In this document: in pieces, positions 1,931 to 14,430 of the stretch
Numbering within the stretch: position 1 is the stretch's first letter
How the letters are laid out: every line of letters begins with the position of its first letter
Position numbers and translations under genes: made by a program
NCBI GenBank assembly: GCA_049324895.1
Contig: JBMOMS010000173.1
Span: 708-64,707 of the forward strand
DNA from: Chloroflexota bacterium
GTDB lineage: Bacteria; Chloroflexota; Anaerolineae; Anaerolineales; Villigracilaceae
Direction: 5' to 3'
DNA: 64,000 nucleotides
The notes under the pieces: model-generated
Seen by the model: only the letters and a program-made list of their open reading frames with translations
What the model was told of the DNA's origin: nothing
Databases searched by the model: none

Positions 1931-3382
1931 ATGACCAAATACGAAACCGTGATCGGGCTTGAAATCCACGCCGAGTTGCAGACCGCTTCCAAGATGTTTT
2001 GCGGCTGCTCCGCCGATTACTCGTCCGCGCCCGAAGCCAACACCAACATCTGTCCCGTCTGCACAGCGCTGCCTGGCGCGATGCCCGTCATCAATGCCAA
2101 AGCCGTCGAGCAGGCCATCCTGGTCGGGCTGGCGCTGCACTGCACGATCAATCCGCACAACACCTTTGCGCGCAAAAATTATTTTTATCCCGACCTGCCC
2201 AAGGGCTACCAGATCTCGCAGTATGACCTGCCCATCGCTTCCGAAGGCTGGCTGGATGTGCCTGCCGATGCGGGTGAGGGCACACAGCGCATCCGCATCC
2301 GCCGCGCGCATCTCGAAGAGGATACCGCCAAGACCTTCCACCGCGGCGACCATGCGCTGATCGACTACAACCGCGCGGGCGTGCCGCTGCTGGAGATCGT
2401 CACCGAGCCTGATTTCCGCAGCGTCGAGTCTGCGCTGGCCTACGCCACCAAGATCCGCGCCATCCTGCGTTATCTCGGCGTCAACGCGGGCGACATGGAG
2501 AAGGGCATCCTGCGCTTCGAGGCCAATGTCTCCGTGCGCCCCGTGGGAAGCGACGAGCTCCGCACCCGCACCGAGATCAAGAACCTGAACAGCTTCCGCG
2601 CCCTGACCCGCGCTTCCGCTTATGAGATCGAGCGCCAGATCAAGCTCTACGAAAGCGGCGGCCAGGTCGTGCAGGAAACATTGGGATGGGATGAAGCCCG
2701 CGGCGTGACGGTGTCCCAGCGCAGCAAGGAACATGCCCACGACTACCGCTACTTCCCCGAGCCTGACCTGCCTCCGTTGGAATTGGCCGCGTCCTACATC
2801 GACAGTTTCCGCGCCCACCTGCCCGAGTTGCCTGATGCCAAGACCGAGCGTTTCCTCCGCGAATATGGACTCAAGCCGCAGGACGCCGCCCTGCTGGCCT
2901 CCGAACTCTCATTGGCCGATTACTTTGAAGCCGTCACCTCACAGACGCGCGACAGCGCCCAGACCGTCTGCAACTGGCTGACAGGCGCCCTCCTGCGGCA
3001 GGTCAACGAGCTTGGCCTGAGCGTGGACGCGATCCCCGTCCCCGCCGCGCACCTGGCTCAACTAATCGACCTGGCCTTCGACAAGACCATCAGCGGCAAC
3101 ACCGCCAAGTCCGTGCTGGTCGAGATGTTCCAGAGCGGCCGCGCCCCGCAGGAGATCGTCGAGGCGCAGGGGCTGGGACAGATCTCCGATGAAAGCGTCC
3201 TCAAGGAAATGGTCATCAAGCTCATCGCTGACAATCCCAAGGAAGTCGCCAGCTATCTCGGCGGCAAGGAAACCCTGCTGCAATGGTTCATGGGACAGAT
3301 TGCCCGCGCCACCAAAGGCAAAGCCGATCCGCAGGCGGTGAAGCAGTTGCTGCTGGATGAATTTGAGAAGATGAAAAAGTAG
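1931..3382 (+). CDS. gatB: Asp-tRNA(Asn)/Glu-tRNA(Gln) amidotransferase subunit B
   Basis: 483-aa ORF with a GatB N-terminal catalytic region ([18 protein letters not shown]) and a GatB/YqeY-type C-terminal tail. Confidence 0.95.
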
Positions 3383-3404
3383 GACTGCCGCCTGTGCCTG
3401 TCCA

Positions 3405-3413
3405 TGCTATAAT
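3405..3413 (+). promoter_or_regulatory. Extended -10 promoter element TGcTATAAT, 7 nt upstream of the leader-peptide ATG (leaderless arrangement)
   Basis: TG at 3405-3406, TATAAT at 3408-3413, ATG at 3421. No SD lies between them. Confidence 0.5.
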
Positions 3414-3420
3414 TGCCGCC

Positions 3421-3501
3421 ATGAAATCCCAACTGCCCTTCGCCAACAACAACGACGATAATGACGATCGCCGTATCGTTGGGCGAAGCCTGGCAGGTTG
3501 A
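3421..3501 (+). CDS. 26-aa Asn/Asp-rich leader peptide MKSQLPFANNNDDNDDRRIVGRSLAG (putative attenuation leader for aspS)
   Basis: Hand-translated and too short for the ORF track. Codons 9-16 are AAC AAC AAC GAC GAT AAT GAC GAT. The TGA stop at 3499-3501 lies inside RNA segment 2 of the alternative-hairpin set. Confidence 0.6.
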   Translation: MKSQLPFANNNDDNDDRRIVGRSLAG

Positions 3502-3558
3502 CGAAAATCCATCGCAACCCCAATCGCCCAACGCACACGCGAAGGGCGATTTATTTTG
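3433..3558 (+). promoter_or_regulatory. Transcription attenuator with alternative 1:2, 2:3 (antiterminator) and 3:4 (terminator) pairings
   Basis: Pairing 1:2 is CTTCGCC 3438-3444 with GGCGAAG 3482-3488. Pairing 2:3 is TTGGGCGA 3479-3486 with TCGCCCAA 3524-3531. Pairing 3:4 is AATCGCCC 3522-3529 with GGGCGATT 3544-3551, followed by a U-tract. Confidence 0.6.
3522..3558 (+). terminator. Intrinsic terminator of the aspS leader
   Basis: The stem AATCGCCC..CGC-ACAC-GCG..GGGCGATT is followed by TATTTTG. Confidence 0.65.
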
Positions 3559-3567
3559 TATACAAAT

Positions 3568-3656
3568 GTCATTGCGAGGGTGCGTAGCACCCGAAGCAAT
3601 CTCAAGTAACCTATAAACATGAGATTGCCGCGCTCGCTTCGCTCGCTCGCAATGAC
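3568..3656. repeat. Palindromic element GTCATTGCGAG...GCAATCTC / GAGATTGC...CTCGCAATGAC
   Basis: Outer arms at 3568-3578 and 3646-3656. Inner GCAATCTC/GAGATTGC arms. Lies in the aspS 5' region. Confidence 0.75.
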
Positions 3657-3674
3657 CTCAACATTGGAGGCATC

Positions 3675-5438
3675 ATGTATAAAACTCACACTTGCGGCGA
3701 ATTGCGCGCCGCCCACGCAGGTCAAACCGTGACTTTGGCGGGCTGGGTACACAACTTCCGCACCTTTGGCGGGGTGGTCTTCCTTGTCCTGCGCGACCGC
3801 TACGGCATCACCCAAATCACCACCAGCCCGACCGATTTCCCCGAGGCGCACCAGGCCATCGAATCCGCCAAGGCGGAGTGGGTGCTGCAAATCGAAGGTG
3901 TGGTCAAGATGCGCCCCAGCGACCAGTTCAACCCGAAGATGGCCACGGGCGAAATCGAACTCGAAGCCCGCAAGGTGACCGTGTTGAACCAGTCCAAGGC
4001 CACGCCCATCGTCGTCAGCCGCGACGAGGACGAGAACGAGGACATCCGCCTGAAATATCGCTATCTCGACCTGCGCCGCGAACGCATGAGCCGCAACATG
4101 GTGTTGCGTCACCGCGTCACCAAGTTCATGCGCGACTTCATGGACAAGCAAGGCTTCATCGAGGTCGAGACGCCGATCCTGTTCAAAGCCACGCCCGAGG
4201 GCGCGCGCGACTATCTCGTGCCGTCCCGCATCCACCCAGGTCACTTCTACGCCCTGCCCCAGTCGCCGCAGCAGCTCAAGCAGTTGTTGATGGTGGCGGG
4301 CATGGATCGCTACTTCCAGATCGCGCGCTGCTTCCGCGACGAAGACCTGCGCGGCGACCGTCAGCCCGAGTTCACCCAACTCGACCTGGAAATGTCCTTC
4401 GTTCACCGCGACGACGTGCTGGTTCTGGTCGAACAGCTCTACACCGAGATGCTGCCCGCCGTCGCTCCGCACAAGAAGCTGCTCTCCTCGCCGTGGCCGA
4501 AATTCTCGCACCACGAGGTGGTCGAGAAATACGGTTCGGACAAGCCCGACCTGCGCTTCGGCATGGAACTGGTCGACGTGAGCGACATCTTCGCCAGGAG
4601 CGAATTCCGCGTCTTCCAGGGCGCGCTGGAAGCGAAGGGCGTGATCAAGTGCATCGTCGCTTCGGGCTGCGCCGACTATTCCCGCAAGGAAGTCGACGCG
4701 TTGACCGAGGCGGCCAAATCGCTCGGGGCGAAGGGGCTGGCCACGGTAGCGGTAACCGCTGAAGGCGTGAAGGGCACCGCGGGCAAATTCGTCACCGCCG
4801 ATGAGGTGGCGGCGCTCAAATCCCGCCTGAACATCAAGGACGGCGACCTGATCCTGTTCGCCGCGGATGCCCGCGCCGTGGTCAACAAGGTGTTGGGCGG
4901 ACTGCGCCTCATCTTCCGCGACAAGCTAGATCTGGCGGACAAGGACACCATGGCCTTCGCCTGGGTGGTCGACTTCCCGATGTTTGCCTGGAACGAAGAG
5001 GATCAGCGCTGGGACGCCGAGCATCACCCATTCACCATGCCGCAGCTCGACGATCTGTCGAAGTTCGACACCGACCCTGGCTCGATCCTGTCGGATGCGT
5101 ACGACATGGTCTGCAACGGCTACGAAATGGCCTCGGGCTCGATCCGCATCCACCGCCGCGACATCCAGACCAGGATCTTCCAACTGCTCGGCCTGAAGGA
5201 TGAAGACATCCAGGCCAAGTTCGGCCACCTGCTGGAGGCGTTCGAGTACGGCGCGCCCCCGCACGGCGGCATGGCCCCTGGCATCGACCGTCTGGTGATG
5301 CTGCTGGCCGACGAACCAAACATCCGCGAAGTGATCGCCTTCCCCAAGAACCAAAGCGGCCGCGACGTGATGGCCGATGCGCCGTCCACGGTGGAAGACA
5401 GGCAATTGAAGGAATTGCATATTAAAATAGCGGAATGA
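3675..5438 (+). CDS. aspS: Aspartate--tRNA ligase (bacterial type)
   Basis: 587-aa class IIb aaRS. Motifs seen: [18 protein letters not shown] and [21 protein letters not shown] lies 4 nt upstream. Confidence 0.95.
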
Positions 5439-5543: not shown

Positions 5544-5783
5544 ATGGACTGGCAGGATCGAATTGTGATTGACCCGAAAATACTGGTTGGAAAGCCCATC
5601 ATCAAAGGAACACGCCTTGCCGTGGAATTCATTGTTGAACTGCTTGCGCAGGGCTGGCCCGAAAGCGAGATCCTAAGAAATTACCCAGGGATCTCAAATG
5701 AGGATATTTCAGCCTGTCTGAAATATGCCACCAACCTGCTCAAAGCCGAAAAAATTTATCCCTTTCAGCTTTCGCAGGCGTGA
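5544..5783 (+). CDS. DUF433-family protein (putative antitoxin)
   Basis: 79-aa ORF with a DUF433-like core (VIDPKILVGKPIIKGTRLAVEFIVELL). AAAGGAG SD. 4-nt overlap with the next ORF. Confidence 0.8.
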   Translation: MDWQDRIVIDPKILVGKPIIKGTRLAVEFIVELLAQGWPESEILRNYPGISNEDISACLKYATNLLKAEKIYPFQLSQA

Positions 5784-6145
5784 AAATGAGGCTTCTTGCT
5801 AACGAGAACTTTCCGCTGGACGCAGTGCAGGCCTTGCGCACAAACGGACATGATGTTGCCTGGATTCGCGAAGATGCGCGCGGAAGCGCTGACGACAAAG
5901 TTTTAATCCGCGCCCAGGAAGAAAAACGAATTCTAATCACGTTTGACAAGGATTTTGGTGAGCTGGCATTTCGCTCCAAACTTCCAGCCGATTGTGGCAT
6001 CATTTTGTTCCGCATTACGCCCGTATCCTCGGCATATATCGCCCAGGTTGCGGTACAAGCGCTTGCCAGCCGAAAAGATTGGGCGGGACATTTCTCAGTG
6101 GTTGAAGATCAACGCATTCGAATGACATCATTACAAAACAGATAA
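5780..6145 (+). CDS. DUF5615-family PIN-like protein (putative toxin)
   Basis: 121-aa ORF (LLANENFP...ILITFDKDF) translationally coupled to the DUF433 gene. The segment is locally AT-richer. Confidence 0.75.
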   Translation: MKMRLLANENFPLDAVQALRTNGHDVAWIREDARGSADDKVLIRAQEEKRILITFDKDFGELAFRSKLPADCGIILFRITPVSSAYIAQVAVQALASRKDWAGHFSVVEDQRIRMTSLQNR

Positions 6146-6170
6146 TCATCGAAACATCAAGGAGAGTTTT

Positions 6171-7514
6171 ATGCCAGAAATCATTCGCGTCTCAGACATC
6201 TCGAAATACGCAGGCCAGGAAGTCACCGTCCAGGGCTGGGTCTACAACCGCACCGACAAGGGCAAGCTGTGCTTCCTGCTCGTGCGCGACGGCTCGGGCT
6301 TCGTTCAGTGCGTGGCCTTCAAGGGCGATCTCGCCCCCGAACTGTTCGACCAGATCATGCGCCTGCCGCAGGAATCCTCGGTCATCGTCACAGGCGCGGT
6401 GCGCGAGGACAAGCGCGCGCCCGGCATCCCTGGCGGATTCGAACTGGGCATCAAGGATTTGAAGGTGGTGCAAACCGCCGAAGCCGACTACCCGATGTCT
6501 CTCAAGGATCACGGCCCCGACTTCGCGCTCGACAACCGCCACCTGTGGATTCGGATGCAGAGCCAATGGGCCATTCTGCGCATCCGCGCCACGGTCATGG
6601 CCGCCACCCGTGAGTGGCTCGACATCAACGGCTTTGCCGAGATGAGCACGCCCATCCTGACCCCCGCCGCCGCCGAAGGCACCACCACCCTCTTCGAGAC
6701 CGAATACTTCGAGGAAGGCAAAGCCTATCTCGCGCAGACGGGTCAGCTTTACAACGAAGCCAACATCTTCGCCTTTGGCAAGGTCTACTGCTTCGGCCCC
6801 ACCTTCCGCGCCGAGAAGTCCAAGACCCGCCGCCACCTGACCGAGTTCTGGATGCTCGAACCCGAGATTGCCTTCTGCGACCTTGATCAGTTGATGGAGA
6901 TCGAGGAACAGATGATCACCCACATCGTCCAGCGTGTGCTGCGCGAGCGTCTGCCCGAGCTCAAGTCGCTGGGCCGCGACATCTCGAAGCTGGAAAACAT
7001 CCAGGCGCCCTTCCCGCGCATCTCCTACGATGACGCCGCCAAAATGCTCCAGGACATGTACGAGAAGGAAACCGACCCCGAGAAAAAGGCCCTGCTCAAA
7101 TTCGACTGGGGCATCGACTTCGGCGCGCCGCACGAGACGGCCATCACCCAGCAGTTCGACAAGCCCGTCTTCGTCTACGGCTACCCGACCGCGGTCAAGG
7201 CCTTCTACATGGAGCCGTGGCCGGGCCGCCCCGAGGTCTGCAAATCCGTCGACCTGCTGGCCCCCGAAGGCTACGGTGAGATCTGCGGCGGCTCGGAGCG
7301 CATCAGCGACCCCGACCTGCTGCTCAAGCGCATCCACGACCAGGGCCTGCCCGAGGAAGCCTTCAAGTGGTATCTCGAACTGCGCAAGTTCGGCTCCGTG
7401 CCCCACAGCGGATTCGGCATGGGCACCGAGCGCGTCACCACCTGGATCTGCGGCACCGAGCACATCCGCGAGGCGATTGCCTTCCCGCGCACGATCAAGC
7501 GCGTATATCCTTAA
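6171..7514 (+). CDS. asnS: Asparagine--tRNA ligase
   Basis: 447-aa class IIb aaRS with the AsnRS-type motif FGPTFRAEKSKTRRHLTEFWMLEPE. AAGGAGAG SD. Confidence 0.93.
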   Translation: MPEIIRVSDISKYAGQEVTVQGWVYNRTDKGKLCFLLVRDGSGFVQCVAFKGDLAPELFDQIMRLPQESSVIVTGAVREDKRAPGIPGGFELGIKDLKVVQTAEADYPMSLKDHGPDFALDNRHLWIRMQSQWAILRIRATVMAATREWLDINGFAEMSTPILTPAAAEGTTTLFETEYFEEGKAYLAQTGQLYNEANIFAFGKVYCFGPTFRAEKSKTRRHLTEFWMLEPEIAFCDLDQLMEIEEQMITHIVQRVLRERLPELKSLGRDISKLENIQAPFPRISYDDAAKMLQDMYEKETDPEKKALLKFDWGIDFGAPHETAITQQFDKPVFVYGYPTAVKAFYMEPWPGRPEVCKSVDLLAPEGYGEICGGSERISDPDLLLKRIHDQGLPEEAFKWYLELRKFGSVPHSGFGMGTERVTTWICGTEHIREAIAFPRTIKRVYP

Positions 7515-7516
7515 AA

Positions 7517-7561
7517 CAAAAAAGACCCTCAGGGTTTTGAAAACCCTGAGGGTCTTTTTGA
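7517..7561. terminator. Bidirectional intrinsic terminator
   Basis: Sequence AAAAAAGACCCTCAGGGTTTTGAAAACCCTGAGGGTCTTTTT lies between the convergent asnS and muramidase genes. Confidence 0.85.
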
Positions 7562-8565: not shown

Positions 8566-8821
8566 ACAATGCTCCTTTGCAGCGAATTGCTTACAGGGTA
8601 GCATAAAATAGGGTCGAAATCAATGCTCTCAGTGTGCACGCAAAACATGTCAGGTAATTTCTTGATAAAACTCGGTTTTGCGGCGCAGGGCTCAAAACAC
8701 GGCTATTTTGAGTGAATTTTCGCATAGATTTTCAAGTCCCAAAAAGTACTGACAACCTTTGCGTGCACACATGCTCTCATGTTTCTCTACCCGCGTCCCC
8801 GGGATTATGGTATAAAAGCAA

Positions 8822-9004
8822 TTGCCCTGCTGTGTACGTGATGTTGCACTCGCGGTTTTGAGCCAACACCCTTGTAAGGGGCTCTAATCTTACAGAAATA
8901 ACGCGATAGGCCTGAGCCAAGGCGGCGTTTCTGGGTCAGAGCCCAACCTGCCAAAAGCAGGTTCAAAACTTCGCAACACACGGCATCTGCGGGGTCCATT
9001 TTTT
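8822..9004 (+). ncRNA. ssrS: Candidate 6S-like RNA (about 183 nt rod with a central bubble)
   Basis: TATAAA -10 at 8811-8816. Closing-arm helices: 8825-8830/8989-8994, 8837-8840/8979-8982, 8842-8847/8973-8978, and a 10-bp helix 8855-8864/8960-8969. Central bubble of about 13 nt / 15 nt. Inner 7-bp helix 8879-8885/8938-8944. Apical stem. U-run at 8999-9004. Confidence 0.5.
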
Positions 9005-10821: not shown

Positions 10822-11901
10822 TTACTGCTCCCGTTTCTGATAGTTTTGGTCGACCCATTTTTGGTAATCGCGTTGTTTCTGGATGGCGTCCATCCAGGCG
10901 GAGTTGGACAGATACCACTCGACCGTGGCGCGCAGGCCGTCGCTCAACGAATAGCGCGGCGACCAGCCCAGGTCGCGGTGGATCTTGTCGATGTTCATGG
11001 CGTAGCGGCGGTCGTGGCCGGGGCGGTCGGCGACGTAGGTGATCAGCTTGTTGTGCGGCAGGTTGGCCGAAGCGGGCTGGAACTCGTCCAGCATGTCGCA
11101 GATGGTCTCGACGATGGTCAGGTTGGCGGGCTGGTTCCCGCCGCCGATGTTGTAGGTCTCACCGGGCTGGCCCTTCGTCAAGATCAGGTGGATGGCCTCG
11201 CAATGATCCTCCACGTACAACCAGTCGCGGATCTGCTGGCCGTCGCCGTAGACCGGCAACGGCTTGCCGGTCATGCCGTTCAGGATCATCAGCGGGATGA
11301 GCTTCTCGGGGAATTGGTACGGTCCGTAATTGTTCGAGCAGTTCGAGATCGTGACGGGCAGCCCGTAGGTGTGGGCATACGAGCGCGCGATGTGGTCGCT
11401 GGAGGCCTTCGAGGCGGCGTAGGGCGAGTTGGGCGCGTAGGGCGTGGTCTCGGAGAAGGCGGGGTCCTTCGGCCCAAGCGTGCCGTAGACTTCATCGGTG
11501 GAGACGTGATGGAAGCGCACCTGGTCCTTCGGCAGAGCGCCCTCCCCCAGCCAGAACTTGCGCGCGGACTCCAGCAGGTTGAATGTGCCAAACACGTTGG
11601 TCTGAATGAACGGCTCAGGTCCCAGGATGGAGCGGTCGACGTGCGACTCGGCTGCGAAGTGAACGATGGTATCGACCTGATACTGGCGCAGGACTTGAGG
11701 GATGAGTTCGCGGTCGCAGATGTCGCCCTGCACGAAGGTATAGCGCTCCGCGCCAGGCAGGTCTTTGAGGTTCTCCAGGCTGCCGGCATAGGTCAGCGCA
11801 TCCAGGTTGACCAGCTGCACGTCGGGCTCGGCCTGGAGCAGATAGCGAACGAAATTGGAGCCGATAAACCCGGCGCCCCCTGTGACCAATACACGTTTCA
11901 T
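10822..11901 (-). CDS. rfbB: dTDP-glucose 4,6-dehydratase
   Basis: 359-aa ORF with [10 protein letters not shown] Rossmann and YAASKASSD catalytic motifs. Confidence 0.95.
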
Positions 11902-14301: not shown

Positions 14302-14358
14302 CCGCATCGAGTGCGCCTTGCACGAAAACAGCCCCCGCTTCGGCGGAGGCTGTCCTTG

Positions 14359-14430
14359 TGACCGACCAGGGACTTGAACCCTGAACCCACTGATTAAGAG
14401 TCAGTTGCTCTGCCATTGAGCTAGTCGGCC
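14359..14430 (-). tRNA. tRNA-Lys (anticodon CUU)
   Basis: Cloverleaf folded by hand: acceptor GGCCGAC/GTCGGTC, D arm GCTC..GAGC, anticodon stem ACTGA/TCAGT with loop CTCTTAA, T arm CAGGG-TTCAAGT-CCCTG. CCA is not encoded. Confidence 0.9.

Follow-up and report, generated by a model that had tools for sequence, protein, structure and literature searches.

The window, by which we mean the whole stretch of 64,000 nucleotides of Chloroflexota DNA that was analysed, contains, downstream of gatB, the genes for an aspartate--tRNA ligase (aspS) and an asparagine--tRNA ligase (asnS), with a pair of small genes between them and a bidirectional terminator behind them (Table 1). The spacer between gatB and aspS carries an unannotated short ORF with a run of Asn and Asp codons, preceded by an extended -10 element and followed by an intrinsic terminator. 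The initial annotation, made from the letters alone, had interpreted this spacer as a leader peptide with a transcription attenuator, and direct reading found the extended -10, the ATG, the 26-codon ORF and the Asn and Asp codons 9-16 exactly where it had placed them.

Table 1. Features of the leader region and of the genes downstream of it (positions are those of the window).
Feature	Position	Strand	Basis or remark
gatB stop codon	3380-3382		Read directly
Extended -10, TGcTATAAT (TGCTATAAT)	3405-3413	+	Read directly
Leader ORF, 26 codons plus TGA, peptide MKSQLPFANNNDDNDDRRIVGRSLAG	3421-3501 (ATG 3421, stop 3499-3501)	+	No Shine-Dalgarno sequence
Segment 1a, CTTCGCC (codons Phe-Ala)	3438-3444	+	Partner GGCGAAG, 3482-3488
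Regulatory codon run, 4 Asn (AAC/AAT) and 4 Asp (GAC/GAT), codons 9-16, NNNDDNDD	3445-3468	+	
Hairpin 1b:2a, GACGAT (3463-3468) with ATCGTT (3475-3480), loop CGCCGT	3463-3480	+	RNAalifold
Segment 2, GTTGGGCGAAGC	3478-3489	+	Alternative partners: segments 1a/1b or segment 3
Small hairpin GGTTGaCGA ... TCGCAACC, holding the stop codon	3496-3519	+	TTGAC/GTCAA in most relatives
Intrinsic terminator: segment 3 AATCGCCCAACGC, loop ACAC, segment 4 GCGAAGGGCGATT, T tract TTTATTTTGT	3522-3559	+	
Imperfect palindrome, 89 nt, GTCATTGCGAGG...CTCGCAATGAC	3568-3656	+	Between terminator and aspS ribosome-binding site
aspS Shine-Dalgarno sequence, GGAGG	3666-3670	+	Read directly
aspS, bacterial-type aspartate--tRNA ligase, 587 aa	3675-5438	+	NF001750, 839 bits (cutoff 443)
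DUF433 (5544-5783) and DUF5615/PIN-like (5780-6145) gene pair	5544-6145	+	Pfam
asnS, asparagine--tRNA ligase, 447 aa	6171-7514	+	NF003037, 526 bits (cutoff 414)
Perfect 19-bp palindromic bidirectional terminator, closing the operon	7519-7559	Strand-neutral	

The 89-nt palindrome folds at -44 kcal/mol (z = -5). It is missing from the loci L021 and L031, unrelated palindrome families replace it in other genomes, and GGAGGCGCA before aspS is kept in nearly all loci. The palindrome is an insertion outside the switch; the interval 3405-3674, originally delimited as the leader, includes it. A second copy of this palindrome in the window was considered and rejected, as the match at 11197 is a chance match in a coding region.

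Outside the window, 41 further Anaerolineales genomes and 21 metagenome contigs have the leader before aspS. Among the genome loci fetched, 41 of 80 have the leader architecture (extended -10, ATG, Asn/Asp run, segment 2, fixed stop and terminator), and these include nearly all loci with an AspRS identity of at least about 67%. The metagenome contigs were retrieved with the loose pattern GGGCGAAGC-N25-55-TCGCCCRACG, whose 127 matches comprise 22 real leader copies on 21 contigs and about 105 chance loci; the latter provided a negative control of about 0.6 Mb. All 18 contigs that have enough downstream sequence carry aspS, and a scan for Asn/Asp windows together with motif searches detected a single leader copy at each aspS locus and no copy outside these loci. 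The comparison of aspS upstream regions, on which the initial annotation had staked its reading, thus revealed about 60 independent sequences that keep the promoter, segments 1-4 and the small ORF with its Asn/Asp run. Distant Anaerolineae leaders (L047, L051, L055 and L058) and the subtype L033/L035 follow the same logic with different sequences. The genes upstream of the leader vary in identity and strand, and therefore the element travels with aspS. Its position in a gatB-aspS spacer, correctly described for the window, is incidental and was seen only there and in L001 and L002.

The extended -10 has the family consensus TGTGCTATAAT; in 41 aligned leaders TATAAT is invariant and TGTGC nearly so, and no -35 is conserved. 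Scans for simple consensus motifs missed both the promoter and the terminator of the leader in the window, because the former lacks a -35 and the stem of the latter has an internal loop. Sixty leaders share the ATG, which gives the ORF a usable translation start. Its distance from the -10 falls into two classes, either 6-12 nt without a Shine-Dalgarno sequence, as in most leaders, or exactly 20 nt with a GAGG located 5-6 nt before the ATG, and only this second subgroup has a Shine-Dalgarno sequence at all. The window belongs to the first class, with 7 nt between TATAAT and ATG. Because of this spacing and the absent Shine-Dalgarno sequence, the leader ORF probably is initiated in a leaderless or near-leaderless manner. 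The reportedly low number of leaderless genes in Chloroflexi, about 5% in 4 of 12 genomes (PMC3160421), weakens this view.

Over 60 main-type leaders, in which the ORF is 24-42 codons long, the run consists of 347 Asn, 171 Asp and 13 other codons. The synonymous codons AAC/AAT and GAC/GAT swap freely, the run length has a median of 9 codons (range 3-23), and the flanks stay fixed. A metagenome-assembled genome assigned to Anaerolinea thermophila (L023) carries the leader MLTRNFFANNDNNNDNNDPYIVGRSLAG. In a six-frame scan of 1.43 Mb of related and unrelated DNA, all 54 of the 54 eight-residue windows with at least seven Asn or Asp residues lie inside the leader ORF, and by the same measure no dense run occurs elsewhere in the 64-kb window. 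The stop codon, which the initial annotation had placed inside segment 2, in fact starts 9 nt 3' of the conserved core GGGCGAAGC and within the small hairpin that follows. This distance is the same in 53 of the 60 leaders. The other seven are frame-shifted by a 1-nt insertion, so that the peptide ends in ...YRWAKPC, and a new TAG or TGA is found 4 nt upstream of the usual stop, that is, 5 nt after GGGCGAAGC. The C-terminal residues ...IVGRSFAG are well conserved in most leaders and the N-terminal residues are not. Because of the synonymous variation, the recreated stops and the restriction of the Shine-Dalgarno sequence to the 20-nt spacing, the leader ORF behaves, as judged by sequence comparison, as translated RNA and not as a peptide gene.

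The three pairings proposed for the leader transcript, 1:2 (3438-3444/3482-3488, extended by 3433-3437/3492-3496), 2:3 and 3:4, all consist of Watson-Crick pairs as claimed. The antiterminator 2:3 had been given as 8 bp; the pairing is correct and the helix really comprises 9 bp (3478-3486/3524-3532). It shares 3524-3529 with the 3:4 stem (3522-3529/3544-3551 plus CGC/GCG, 8+3 bp, followed by TTTATTTTGT), and the two structures are thus mutually exclusive. The region 3415-3565 folds at -50.5 kcal/mol as compared with -34.2 +/- 3.8 kcal/mol for shuffled sequences (z = -4.24; 0 of 200 shuffles as good). The nascent 1:2 fold has -29.0, the 2:3 fold of 3469-3535 -27.5 and the terminator -17.3 kcal/mol. 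The comparison of the two states by folding, proposed along with the original reading, found them isoenergetic in the naked full leader, with -50.0 kcal/mol for the terminator and -50.1 kcal/mol for the antiterminator state.

Across the leaders, helix 2:3 is paired in 97.3% of the cells, as compared with 25-44% when the partner is slid. The terminator 3:4 is paired in 96.9% and the 1a:2b core helix in 91.8% of the cells (41 leaders), and the slid-partner controls for the three helices ranged from 20 to 52%. Segment 2 is nearly invariant in the aligned leaders, and in the subtype L033/L035 one G-C pair of 2:3 becomes C-G. In the terminator, which is the RNAalifold consensus structure and is unique within the window, three apical pairs have changed on both sides, and eight loci have a larger apex with compensating stems. 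The core stems hardly vary and therefore show little classical covariation, both in 2:3, where it amounts to one pair, and in the lower part of the terminator stem. The outer extension of 1:2 (CTGCC/GGCAG) does exist in the window, but it is paired in only 50% across homologues and so is not a family trait. A further helix, 1b:2a, was overlooked by the initial annotation. It joins the last two Asp codons to the 5' end of segment 2, is 92.9% paired and is predicted as a hairpin in 60 of 61 leaders; 16 cells have changed on both sides in three pairs (AU to CG, UA to CG and GC to AU), and these compensatory changes come with amino-acid replacements in the peptide (D to A, I to G). Its covariation score is 0.271 versus 0.180 for shuffled alignments (0 of 500 shuffles reach 0.271), this being a control that related sequences without structure are known to exceed. 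The stop-codon hairpin TTGAC/GTCAA is 78% paired across homologues and compatible with both states; no covariation was detectable for it in the leader alignment.

Identification of aspS, the first structural gene behind the leader, as the controlled gene agrees with the conservation of the leader directly before aspS, but asnS, which lies downstream in the same orientation, had been missed. In 15 genome loci, including the window, and in four metagenome loci asnS follows aspS, with gaps down to 16 nt, and it probably represents the distal, co-transcribed gene of the aspS operon. The DUF433 and DUF5615/PIN-like pair between the two genes was found in the window genome only, and in L001, which lacks it, the gap measures 81 nt. 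Because this pair resembles a toxin-antitoxin module and a weak promoter-like site lies between aspS and asnS (6122-6149), asnS may be partly uncoupled. Overall, 19 loci have the leader in front of aspS-asnS and 25 have it in front of aspS-gatCAB; a single copy, whose run contains 9 Asn codons but none for Asp, lies before asnA. In the sequences compared, the codon content of the leader tracks the content of the operon, as Asn and Asp codons precede aspS accompanied by asnS or gatCAB, and only Asn codons precede asnA.

In the window genome the Asn codons are explained by the aspS-asnS operon, and an AspRS of dual specificity is thus not required. The initial annotation had regarded the window enzyme as potentially charging both tRNA-Asp and tRNA-Asn. 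However, at the position equivalent to His31 of Pseudomonas aeruginosa, in the anticodon domain, it has Phe. A His at this position we take to be the determinant of non-discriminating AspRS (presumably that of Bernard et al., 2006); the P. aeruginosa Asp/Asn enzyme (4wj3) reads RRRDHGG and the discriminating Thermus thermophilus enzyme (1efw) RRRDLGG. The Phe suggests, by residue comparison and in a suggestive manner only, that the window AspRS lacks the non-discriminating signature. At the aspS-gatCAB genome loci, 22 of 22 enzymes have His at the equivalent position.

These features very probably constitute a ribosome-mediated leader-peptide attenuator that senses charged tRNA-Asn and tRNA-Asp and controls the aspS-asnS operon. 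The core of the original proposal, a translated Asn/Asp leader with mutually exclusive pairings 1:2, 2:3 and 3:4 before aspS, is supported by the conservation in about 60 sequences from Anaerolineae genomes and contigs, which also makes it very likely that this amino-acid-sensing attenuator is an undescribed one. Transcription would start from the extended -10 at, or a few nucleotides from, the ATG at 3421 and yield a leaderless or near-leaderless message. On a transcript free of ribosomes, segment 1a (3438-3444/3482-3488) and the last Asp codons (3463-3468/3475-3480) would lock segment 2, the 3:4 terminator would form, and RNA polymerase would stop at the T tract near 3552-3559. If translation proceeds unhindered to the stop codon at 3499, the ribosome itself would cover segment 2 in its 3' half, again with formation of the terminator. 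A ribosome with the stop codon in its A site would mask only this 3' part, and thus the logic under replete conditions leans partly on rapid re-formation of 1:2. When Asn-tRNA or Asp-tRNA is scarce, by contrast, the ribosome would stall on the eight Asn and Asp codons (3445-3468) and cover or separate 1a and 1b. GTTGGGCGA (3478-3486), left free, could then pair with TCGCCCAAC (3524-3532), in which case no terminator forms and transcription enters aspS and asnS. What the sequences show directly is which elements are present, that they exclude one another, what energies they have and how well they are conserved, that the ORF is under constraints of a coding type, and that codon content and operon content are linked; from this we infer the start site, the coupling of ribosome and polymerase, the stalling, the co-transcription of asnS and the regulatory response.

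Among the alternatives, the one that fares best, unlikely as it is, holds that translation of the ORF reports general translational capacity or modulates Rho or terminator access, in the manner of general coupling or polarity control, and that the Asn/Asp run is tolerated low-complexity sequence. The imperfect geometry under replete conditions, in which a ribosome at the stop codon masks segment 2 only in part, would be in line with this, as would one leader copy of L150 (leader 1, upstream of asnA) that has only 2 Asn codons left and retains the RNA elements. A run that is merely tolerated, however, hardly accounts for 518 of 531 codons being Asn or Asp despite free synonymous change and lengths of 3-23 codons, for the confinement of dense runs to the leader within 1.43 Mb, or for codons that follow the downstream genes, with Asn and Asp for aspS with asnS or gatCAB and Asn for asnA.

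We give slightly less credence to a protein- or tRNA-binding riboregulator, such as AspRS autoregulation as known for thrS or a T-box-like sensor, to which the ORF would be incidental. T-box control of aspS and asnS is common in Firmicutes, and segments 2-4 vary unusually little, which would suit a binding site. Their invariance is, however, expected because each base joins two alternative helices, and the ATG, the reading frame, the fixed or recreated stops and the spacing-dependent Shine-Dalgarno sequence are constraints of a coding type, unlike those of an untranslated RNA. The apparent lack of a T-box noted in the initial annotation was borne out by cmscan of 3300-3750 at E-values up to 10, where no T-box, no other Rfam family and none of the curated leader families (His, Trp, Thr, Leu and others) was matched and only three sub-threshold chance matches (SAH, MIR4416 and SNORD49) appeared; scanning the whole window at gathering score gave no leader-family match and only chance matches near the region.

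It is also improbable, and somewhat more so, that the small ORF is a functional micropeptide gene and the hairpin the ordinary terminator of this gene or, in the window, of gatCAB. The conserved C-terminus speaks for a functional peptide and the absence of any other terminator after gatB in the window for a role in ending gatCAB. Against this, the N-terminal residues are unconserved and helix 1b:2a keeps its pairing at the expense of amino-acid changes. In the seven frame-shifted leaders the nucleotides behind the conserved C-terminus are read in a different frame, and therefore conservation acts at the RNA level. The element also is always co-oriented with and directly before aspS, whatever the upstream gene, and a terminator that separates a promoter from the one essential gene beside it implies that read-through is conditional. 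A fortuitous small ORF with hairpins in an intergenic spacer, for which only the silence of the consensus scanners could be adduced, is hardly conceivable and already refuted by the comparative data, given the fold z-score of -4.24, the architecture shared by about 60 sequences and the 54 of 54 Asn/Asp windows in the leader ORF.

The attenuator reading has consequences beyond this locus. Whether the family is the first to read both Asn and Asp codons, with a leader that has co-evolved with the route to Asn-tRNA, we judge to be an evenly balanced question. If this is true, the switch would serve aspS-asnS in genomes with direct formation of Asn-tRNA, where AspRS has lost the His signature, aspS-gatCAB in genomes where transamidation uses a His-bearing and probably non-discriminating AspRS, and asnA by means of an Asn-only run. 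The Asn codons in aspS-gatCAB genomes would then be a direct sensor of the flux through tRNA-dependent amidation, a regulatory input not described for this pathway, and initiation at a 5'-terminal AUG would put the sensing ribosome at the very start of the transcript. The family would extend leader-peptide attenuation to Asn and Asp, to the charging of tRNA-Asp and tRNA-Asn including the GatCAB transamidation route, and to the Chloroflexota (class Anaerolineae), in which almost no gene regulation has been characterised. The change of leader codon composition with the controlled genes amounts to a natural experiment. For annotation, the small ORF and the premature terminator before aspS are recognisable features that have been left unannotated, and together they make up a compact, sequence-defined candidate for an Asn/Asp-responsive switch.

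Leader-peptide attenuation is a textbook mechanism, known nearly exclusively from amino-acid biosynthetic operons of Proteobacteria and Actinobacteria and, in addition, from pheST. To our knowledge, no attenuator with Asn or Asp as its regulatory codons has been described. A full-text literature search, the scope of which excluded the 2010 Lopatovskaya survey, Bernard 2006, Chuawong 2006 and table S9 of PMC4007540, retrieved no Asn/Asp attenuator. A close functional parallel is pheST of Escherichia coli with the leader peptide pheM, where a leader-peptide terminator/antiterminator that contains the cognate codons also controls a synthetase operon. However, pheST senses Phe only, has an ORF led by a Shine-Dalgarno sequence, belongs to the Gammaproteobacteria and is unrelated in sequence, whereas the aspS leader would read two amino acids and control two synthetases or a synthetase and an amidotransferase. 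With E. coli trpL it shares the 1:2, 2:3, 3:4 logic, as well as a stop codon whose position would let a ribosome that completes the ORF keep 2:3 from forming. In the distant leaders L047 and L051, segment 1 directly follows the regulatory codons, which is also its place in trpL, whereas in main-type leaders it is split, with 1a located 5' of the run and 1b formed by the last Asp codons. Further differences from trpL are the run of 3-23 instead of 2 codons, the synthetase instead of biosynthetic operon, and the probably leaderless start. The mixing of operon-relevant codons in one ORF is known from the thr leader (Thr and Ile) and the ilvGMEDA leader (Leu, Val and Ile), but these attenuators control biosynthetic pathways. 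The T-box leaders of aspS and asnS in Firmicutes, such as that of Bacillus subtilis hisS-aspS, act on the same genes, through a terminator decision in the 5' leader and in response to tRNA charging. A T-box, however, binds uncharged tRNA directly and without translation, whereas the sensing device of the aspS leader would be a translated ORF. With regard to initiation, 14 putative leader peptides, which are leaderless, are described for Deinococcus deserti, for example before cysS (PMC4007540), a set that may include an aspS case, and mycobacteria have polycysteine leaderless uORFs (bioRxiv 10.1101/834739). Such ORFs likewise lie at or beside the 5' end, without a Shine-Dalgarno sequence, before synthetase or amino-acid genes, but they occur in other phyla, differ in sequence and, as far as described, sense other amino acids; unlike them, the aspS leader family combines a putatively leaderless subgroup with one that is led by a Shine-Dalgarno sequence.

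The attenuator predicted upstream of aspS is very probably real and is well supported by comparative evidence. Direct reading of the window reproduced exactly the coordinates at which the initial annotation had placed the sequence elements of an Asn/Asp leader peptide (table). The leader ATG follows the -10 element by 7 nt and lacks a Shine-Dalgarno sequence. The three mutually exclusive pairings, 1:2 (anti-antiterminator), 2:3 (antiterminator) and 3:4 (terminator), are all Watson-Crick at their proposed positions. The 2:3 helix, originally described as 8 bp long, comprises 9 bp (3478-3486 with 3524-3532), and the stop codon lies not inside segment 2 but 9 nt 3' of its conserved core. The outer CTGCC/GGCAG extension of 1:2 is indeed paired in the window but is peculiar to this genome.

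Features of the aspS-asnS region (window coordinates)
Feature	Position	Strand	Basis or remark
gatB stop codon	3380-3382		direct reading
TGCTATAAT, predicted extended -10 promoter element	3405-3413	+	direct reading
Leader ORF MKSQLPFANNNDDNDDRRIVGRSLAG	ATG 3421, stop 3499-3501	+	direct reading
N/D run (Asn/Asp codons), codons 9-16	3445-3468	+	4 Asn and 4 Asp codons
Helix 1b:2a	GACGAT 3463-3468 with ATCGTT 3475-3480		RNAalifold; last two Asp codons with 5' end of segment 2
Palindrome (89 nt) between terminator and aspS Shine-Dalgarno	3568-3656		-44 kcal/mol
Shine-Dalgarno of aspS	3666-3670	+
DUF433 gene	5544-5783	+
DUF5615 (PIN/Mut7-C-like) gene	5780-6145	+
asnS, asparagine--tRNA ligase	6171-7514	+	NF003037, 526 bits, cutoff 414
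Predicted bidirectional terminator closing asnS	7519-7559		perfect 19-bp palindrome

The AspRS protein as query retrieved 80 loci, which assign the window to Anaerolineales (Chloroflexota). In 40 of them aspS is preceded, at a distance of 83-320 nt, by a mini-ORF containing an N/D run, and one more leader-bearing locus (L019) lies on a truncated contig. The leader-bearing genomes comprise nearly all loci with an AspRS identity to the query of about 67% or more; above this value the leader is missing from L037 and L038, and in L031 the terminator persists together with a degenerate ORF. Scanning metagenome contigs for the leader pattern yielded 22 further copies in 21 contigs, followed by aspS in all 18 contigs with enough downstream sequence. 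Alignment of the aspS upstream regions, as the initial annotation had suggested, revealed the mini-ORF and the segments as common to the relatives: the leaders have in common TGTGCTATAAT, a short spacer followed by the ATG and about six variable codons, TTCGCC, the N/D run, GTTGGGCGAAGC, a stop codon, a small hairpin, and AATCGCCCRACGC joined by a loop to GCGAAGGGCGATTTATTTT. Because the genes upstream of the leader vary in identity and orientation, and gatCAB precedes it only in the window, L001 and L002, the leader goes with aspS rather than with gatB. In a six-frame scan of 743,502 nt (the window and the 80 loci) and of another 690,069 nt from metagenomes, mostly unrelated, all 54 stretches with at least 7 Asn/Asp residues out of 8 fell inside the leader ORF. 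Six pattern matches with a 91-nt period in metagenome contig L128 (about 1888-2414) point to a tandem repeat array that has no relation to the leader.

The pairings are conserved as well. The 2:3 helix is paired in 97.3% of cells, compared with 25-44% for slid partners, and the 3:4 helix in 96.9%, compared with 35-40%. The 1a:2b core (CTTCGCC/GGCGAAG) is paired in 91.8%; the slid control for 1:2 (39-52%) refers to the whole 1:2 structure, itself 75.3% paired. The core stems are nearly invariant, which limits classical covariation but is to be expected if every base has to pair with either of two partners. At the 3:4 apex three pairs have changed on both sides, and eight loci have an expanded apex with compensating stems of their own. 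The RNAalifold consensus structure is the terminator, and the same analysis pointed to a helix overlooked in the initial annotation, 1b:2a. Its pairing reaches 92.9%; three of its pairs (AU to CG, UA to CG, GC to AU) account for 16 cells in which both sides have changed, and its covariation score (0.271) exceeds those of all 500 shuffles and all slid versions. At the peptide level the compensatory exchanges are not silent (D to A, I to G). Such a hairpin is predicted for 60 of 61 leaders, which build it from at least five different base combinations. Segment 1 thus has two parts, with 1a located 5' of the run and 1b formed by the end of the run, and these jointly lock the whole of segment 2. 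The L033/L035 subtype realizes the same design in other bases (segment 2 GCTCGGGCG, segment 3 CGCCCGAGC, terminator CCGCCCGaGC...GCcGGGCGG), and in the distant leaders (L047/L051 MMTHTIRLIVDNDNVCPPLGRPTV, L055, L058) GCCGCCC/GGGCGGC repeats supply all three pairings anew, and segment 1 immediately follows the D/N codons, an arrangement shared with trpL.

The leader ORF is constrained as a translated sequence but not as a peptide. In the 60 leaders of the common architecture (main type) the run contains 347 Asn, 171 Asp and 13 other codons, has a median length of 9 codons (range 3-23), and opens with Asn codons and closes with Asp codons. The choice between synonymous codons is free (AAT 134, AAC 90, GAT 64, GAC 56), those ending in T being commoner than in aspS coding sequences. 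The stop codon starts exactly 9 nt after GGGCGAAGC in 53 of the 60. The other seven carry one inserted nucleotide behind the run and are read onward in a different frame, in which the same nucleotides encode ...YRWAKPC in place of ...IVGRSFAG; in every one a TAG or TGA has newly arisen 4 nt before the usual stop position. Hence, the stop position is selected and the peptide sequence is not. The distance from -10 element to ATG is bimodal, either 6-12 nt without a Shine-Dalgarno sequence or exactly 20 nt, in which case GAGG precedes the ATG by 5-6 nt; the distant Anaerolineae variants L055 and L058 have GGAGG and an ATG far from the promoter. An initiation signal is present just where a 5'-terminal AUG is no longer available. 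In metagenome contig L176 (about 1060-1300, +) the run consists of two Asp codons and 21 Asn codons, of which 20 are consecutive and mostly repeats of AAT; this composition suggests that run length changes by slippage.

Downstream of aspS (3675-5438, +; NF001750, 839 bits) lies a co-oriented asnS that the initial annotation did not include and that changes the reading of the leader's Asn codons. The two genes are separated by 81 nt in the closest relative and by 16 nt in L005. In the window an overlapping DUF433/DUF5615 pair, which looks like a toxin-antitoxin module and is absent from the closest relative, is inserted between them, and a weak promoter-like site at 6122-6149 might allow some independent asnS transcription. 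Leader-bearing loci have the order aspS-asnS in 19 cases and aspS-gatCAB in 25, one of the latter with asnS further on and several with dapB in between. Two metagenome contigs (L159 1-1600, +; L150 about 5780-7040, -) carry asnA (TIGR00669, 382 bits), the gene for aspartate--ammonia ligase, inserted between a leader copy and aspS-asnS. The asnA leader of L159, with nine Asn and no Asp codons, is the only one of the family whose run lacks Asp; in L150 two leaders follow one another, the run being mostly lost before asnA and normal before aspS. Given these operon types and the Asn-only leader of L159, codon content follows what the operon makes. In seven loci (L008, L011, L013, L016, L024, L026, L027) a dapB-like gene of 262-268 aa lies between aspS and gatC within the leader-led cluster, assigned by Pfam scan in L011 and by position and matching length in the other six; dapB encodes dihydrodipicolinate reductase of the aspartate-derived lysine/DAP pathway.

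The initial annotation had suggested that one AspRS might charge both tRNAs. A residue in the anticodon-domain loop, which reportedly signifies AspRS specificity, is His in the Asp/Asn enzyme of P. aeruginosa (RRRDHGG) and Leu in the discriminating enzyme of T. thermophilus. All 22 aspS-gatCAB genome loci have His here, but Phe occurs in the window (loop at AspRS residues 24-33) and otherwise only in the clade with asnS next to aspS (L001-L005, L034, L036, L040, L075). This pattern suggests a switch from a non-discriminating to a discriminating enzyme in the Phe clade. Dual charging may hold in gatCAB-type genomes, but is neither needed nor favoured for the window.

The 89-nt palindrome does not belong to the switch. 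No insert is present at this site in L021 and L031. In other genomes (L002-L075) the site holds long palindromes that fall into at least four unrelated families (GTCATTGCGAGG.., ACCACAAAGGACACAAAG.., GACCTGACAGGTTT.., GTCACCCTGAGC...), and these recur in the spacers after aspS (aspS-gatC, aspS-asnS). The site may be a hot spot for insertions, or a hairpin in the 5' UTR may be under selection. The window also contains ordinary genes for 6S RNA (8821-8999, +; Rfam 65.5 bits) and tRNA-Lys(CUU) (14358-14430, -).

The window leader very probably functions by classical ribosome-mediated attenuation. The suggested folding of 3415-3565 gave -50.5 kcal/mol, compared with -34.2 +/- 3.8 for dinucleotide shuffles (z = -4.24). 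Folded as separate pieces, the nascent RNA up to the stop codon (1:2) has -29.0, 3469-3535 (2:3 plus a small nested hairpin) -27.5, and the terminator by itself -17.3 kcal/mol. In the naked full leader the terminator and antiterminator states are isoenergetic (-50.0 and -50.1 kcal/mol), as a kinetic switch decided by the ribosome needs. Transcription would start at or adjoining the leader ATG. On RNA free of ribosomes, 1a:2b and 1b:2a would form first and 3:4 would then terminate; read-through transcripts from gatCAB, with an internal AUG and no Shine-Dalgarno sequence, should have the same fate. By footprint arithmetic, a coupled ribosome at the stop codon would cover roughly 3484-3511 and leave at most 6 nt of segment 2 free, so that 3:4 prevails. 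Stalling at any of the N/D codons would place the ribosome between or on 1a and 1b and leave GTTGGGCGA free; 2:3 could then form as segment 3 emerges, and the polymerase would continue into aspS and, if the two are co-transcribed, asnS.

Rfam returned no family match for the leader region or the whole window, neither a curated leader nor a T-box, in agreement with the initial annotation, which had seen no T-box. That annotation also knew of no ribosome-mediated attenuation for aspS; likewise, a full-text literature search with incomplete coverage of the relevant sources retrieved neither an attenuator that reads Asn or Asp codons nor one that controls aspS or asnS. Among known systems, the E. 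coli pheST attenuator has the most similar target and trpL the most similar logic; the thr and ilv leaders come closest in their mixed codons, and the leaderless leader ORFs described from Deinococcus deserti and mycobacteria in their mode of initiation. T-boxes of Firmicutes control the same genes, but by a translation-independent route. The attenuator is thus conceptually familiar, and new in the amino acids sensed, its targets and its phylum.
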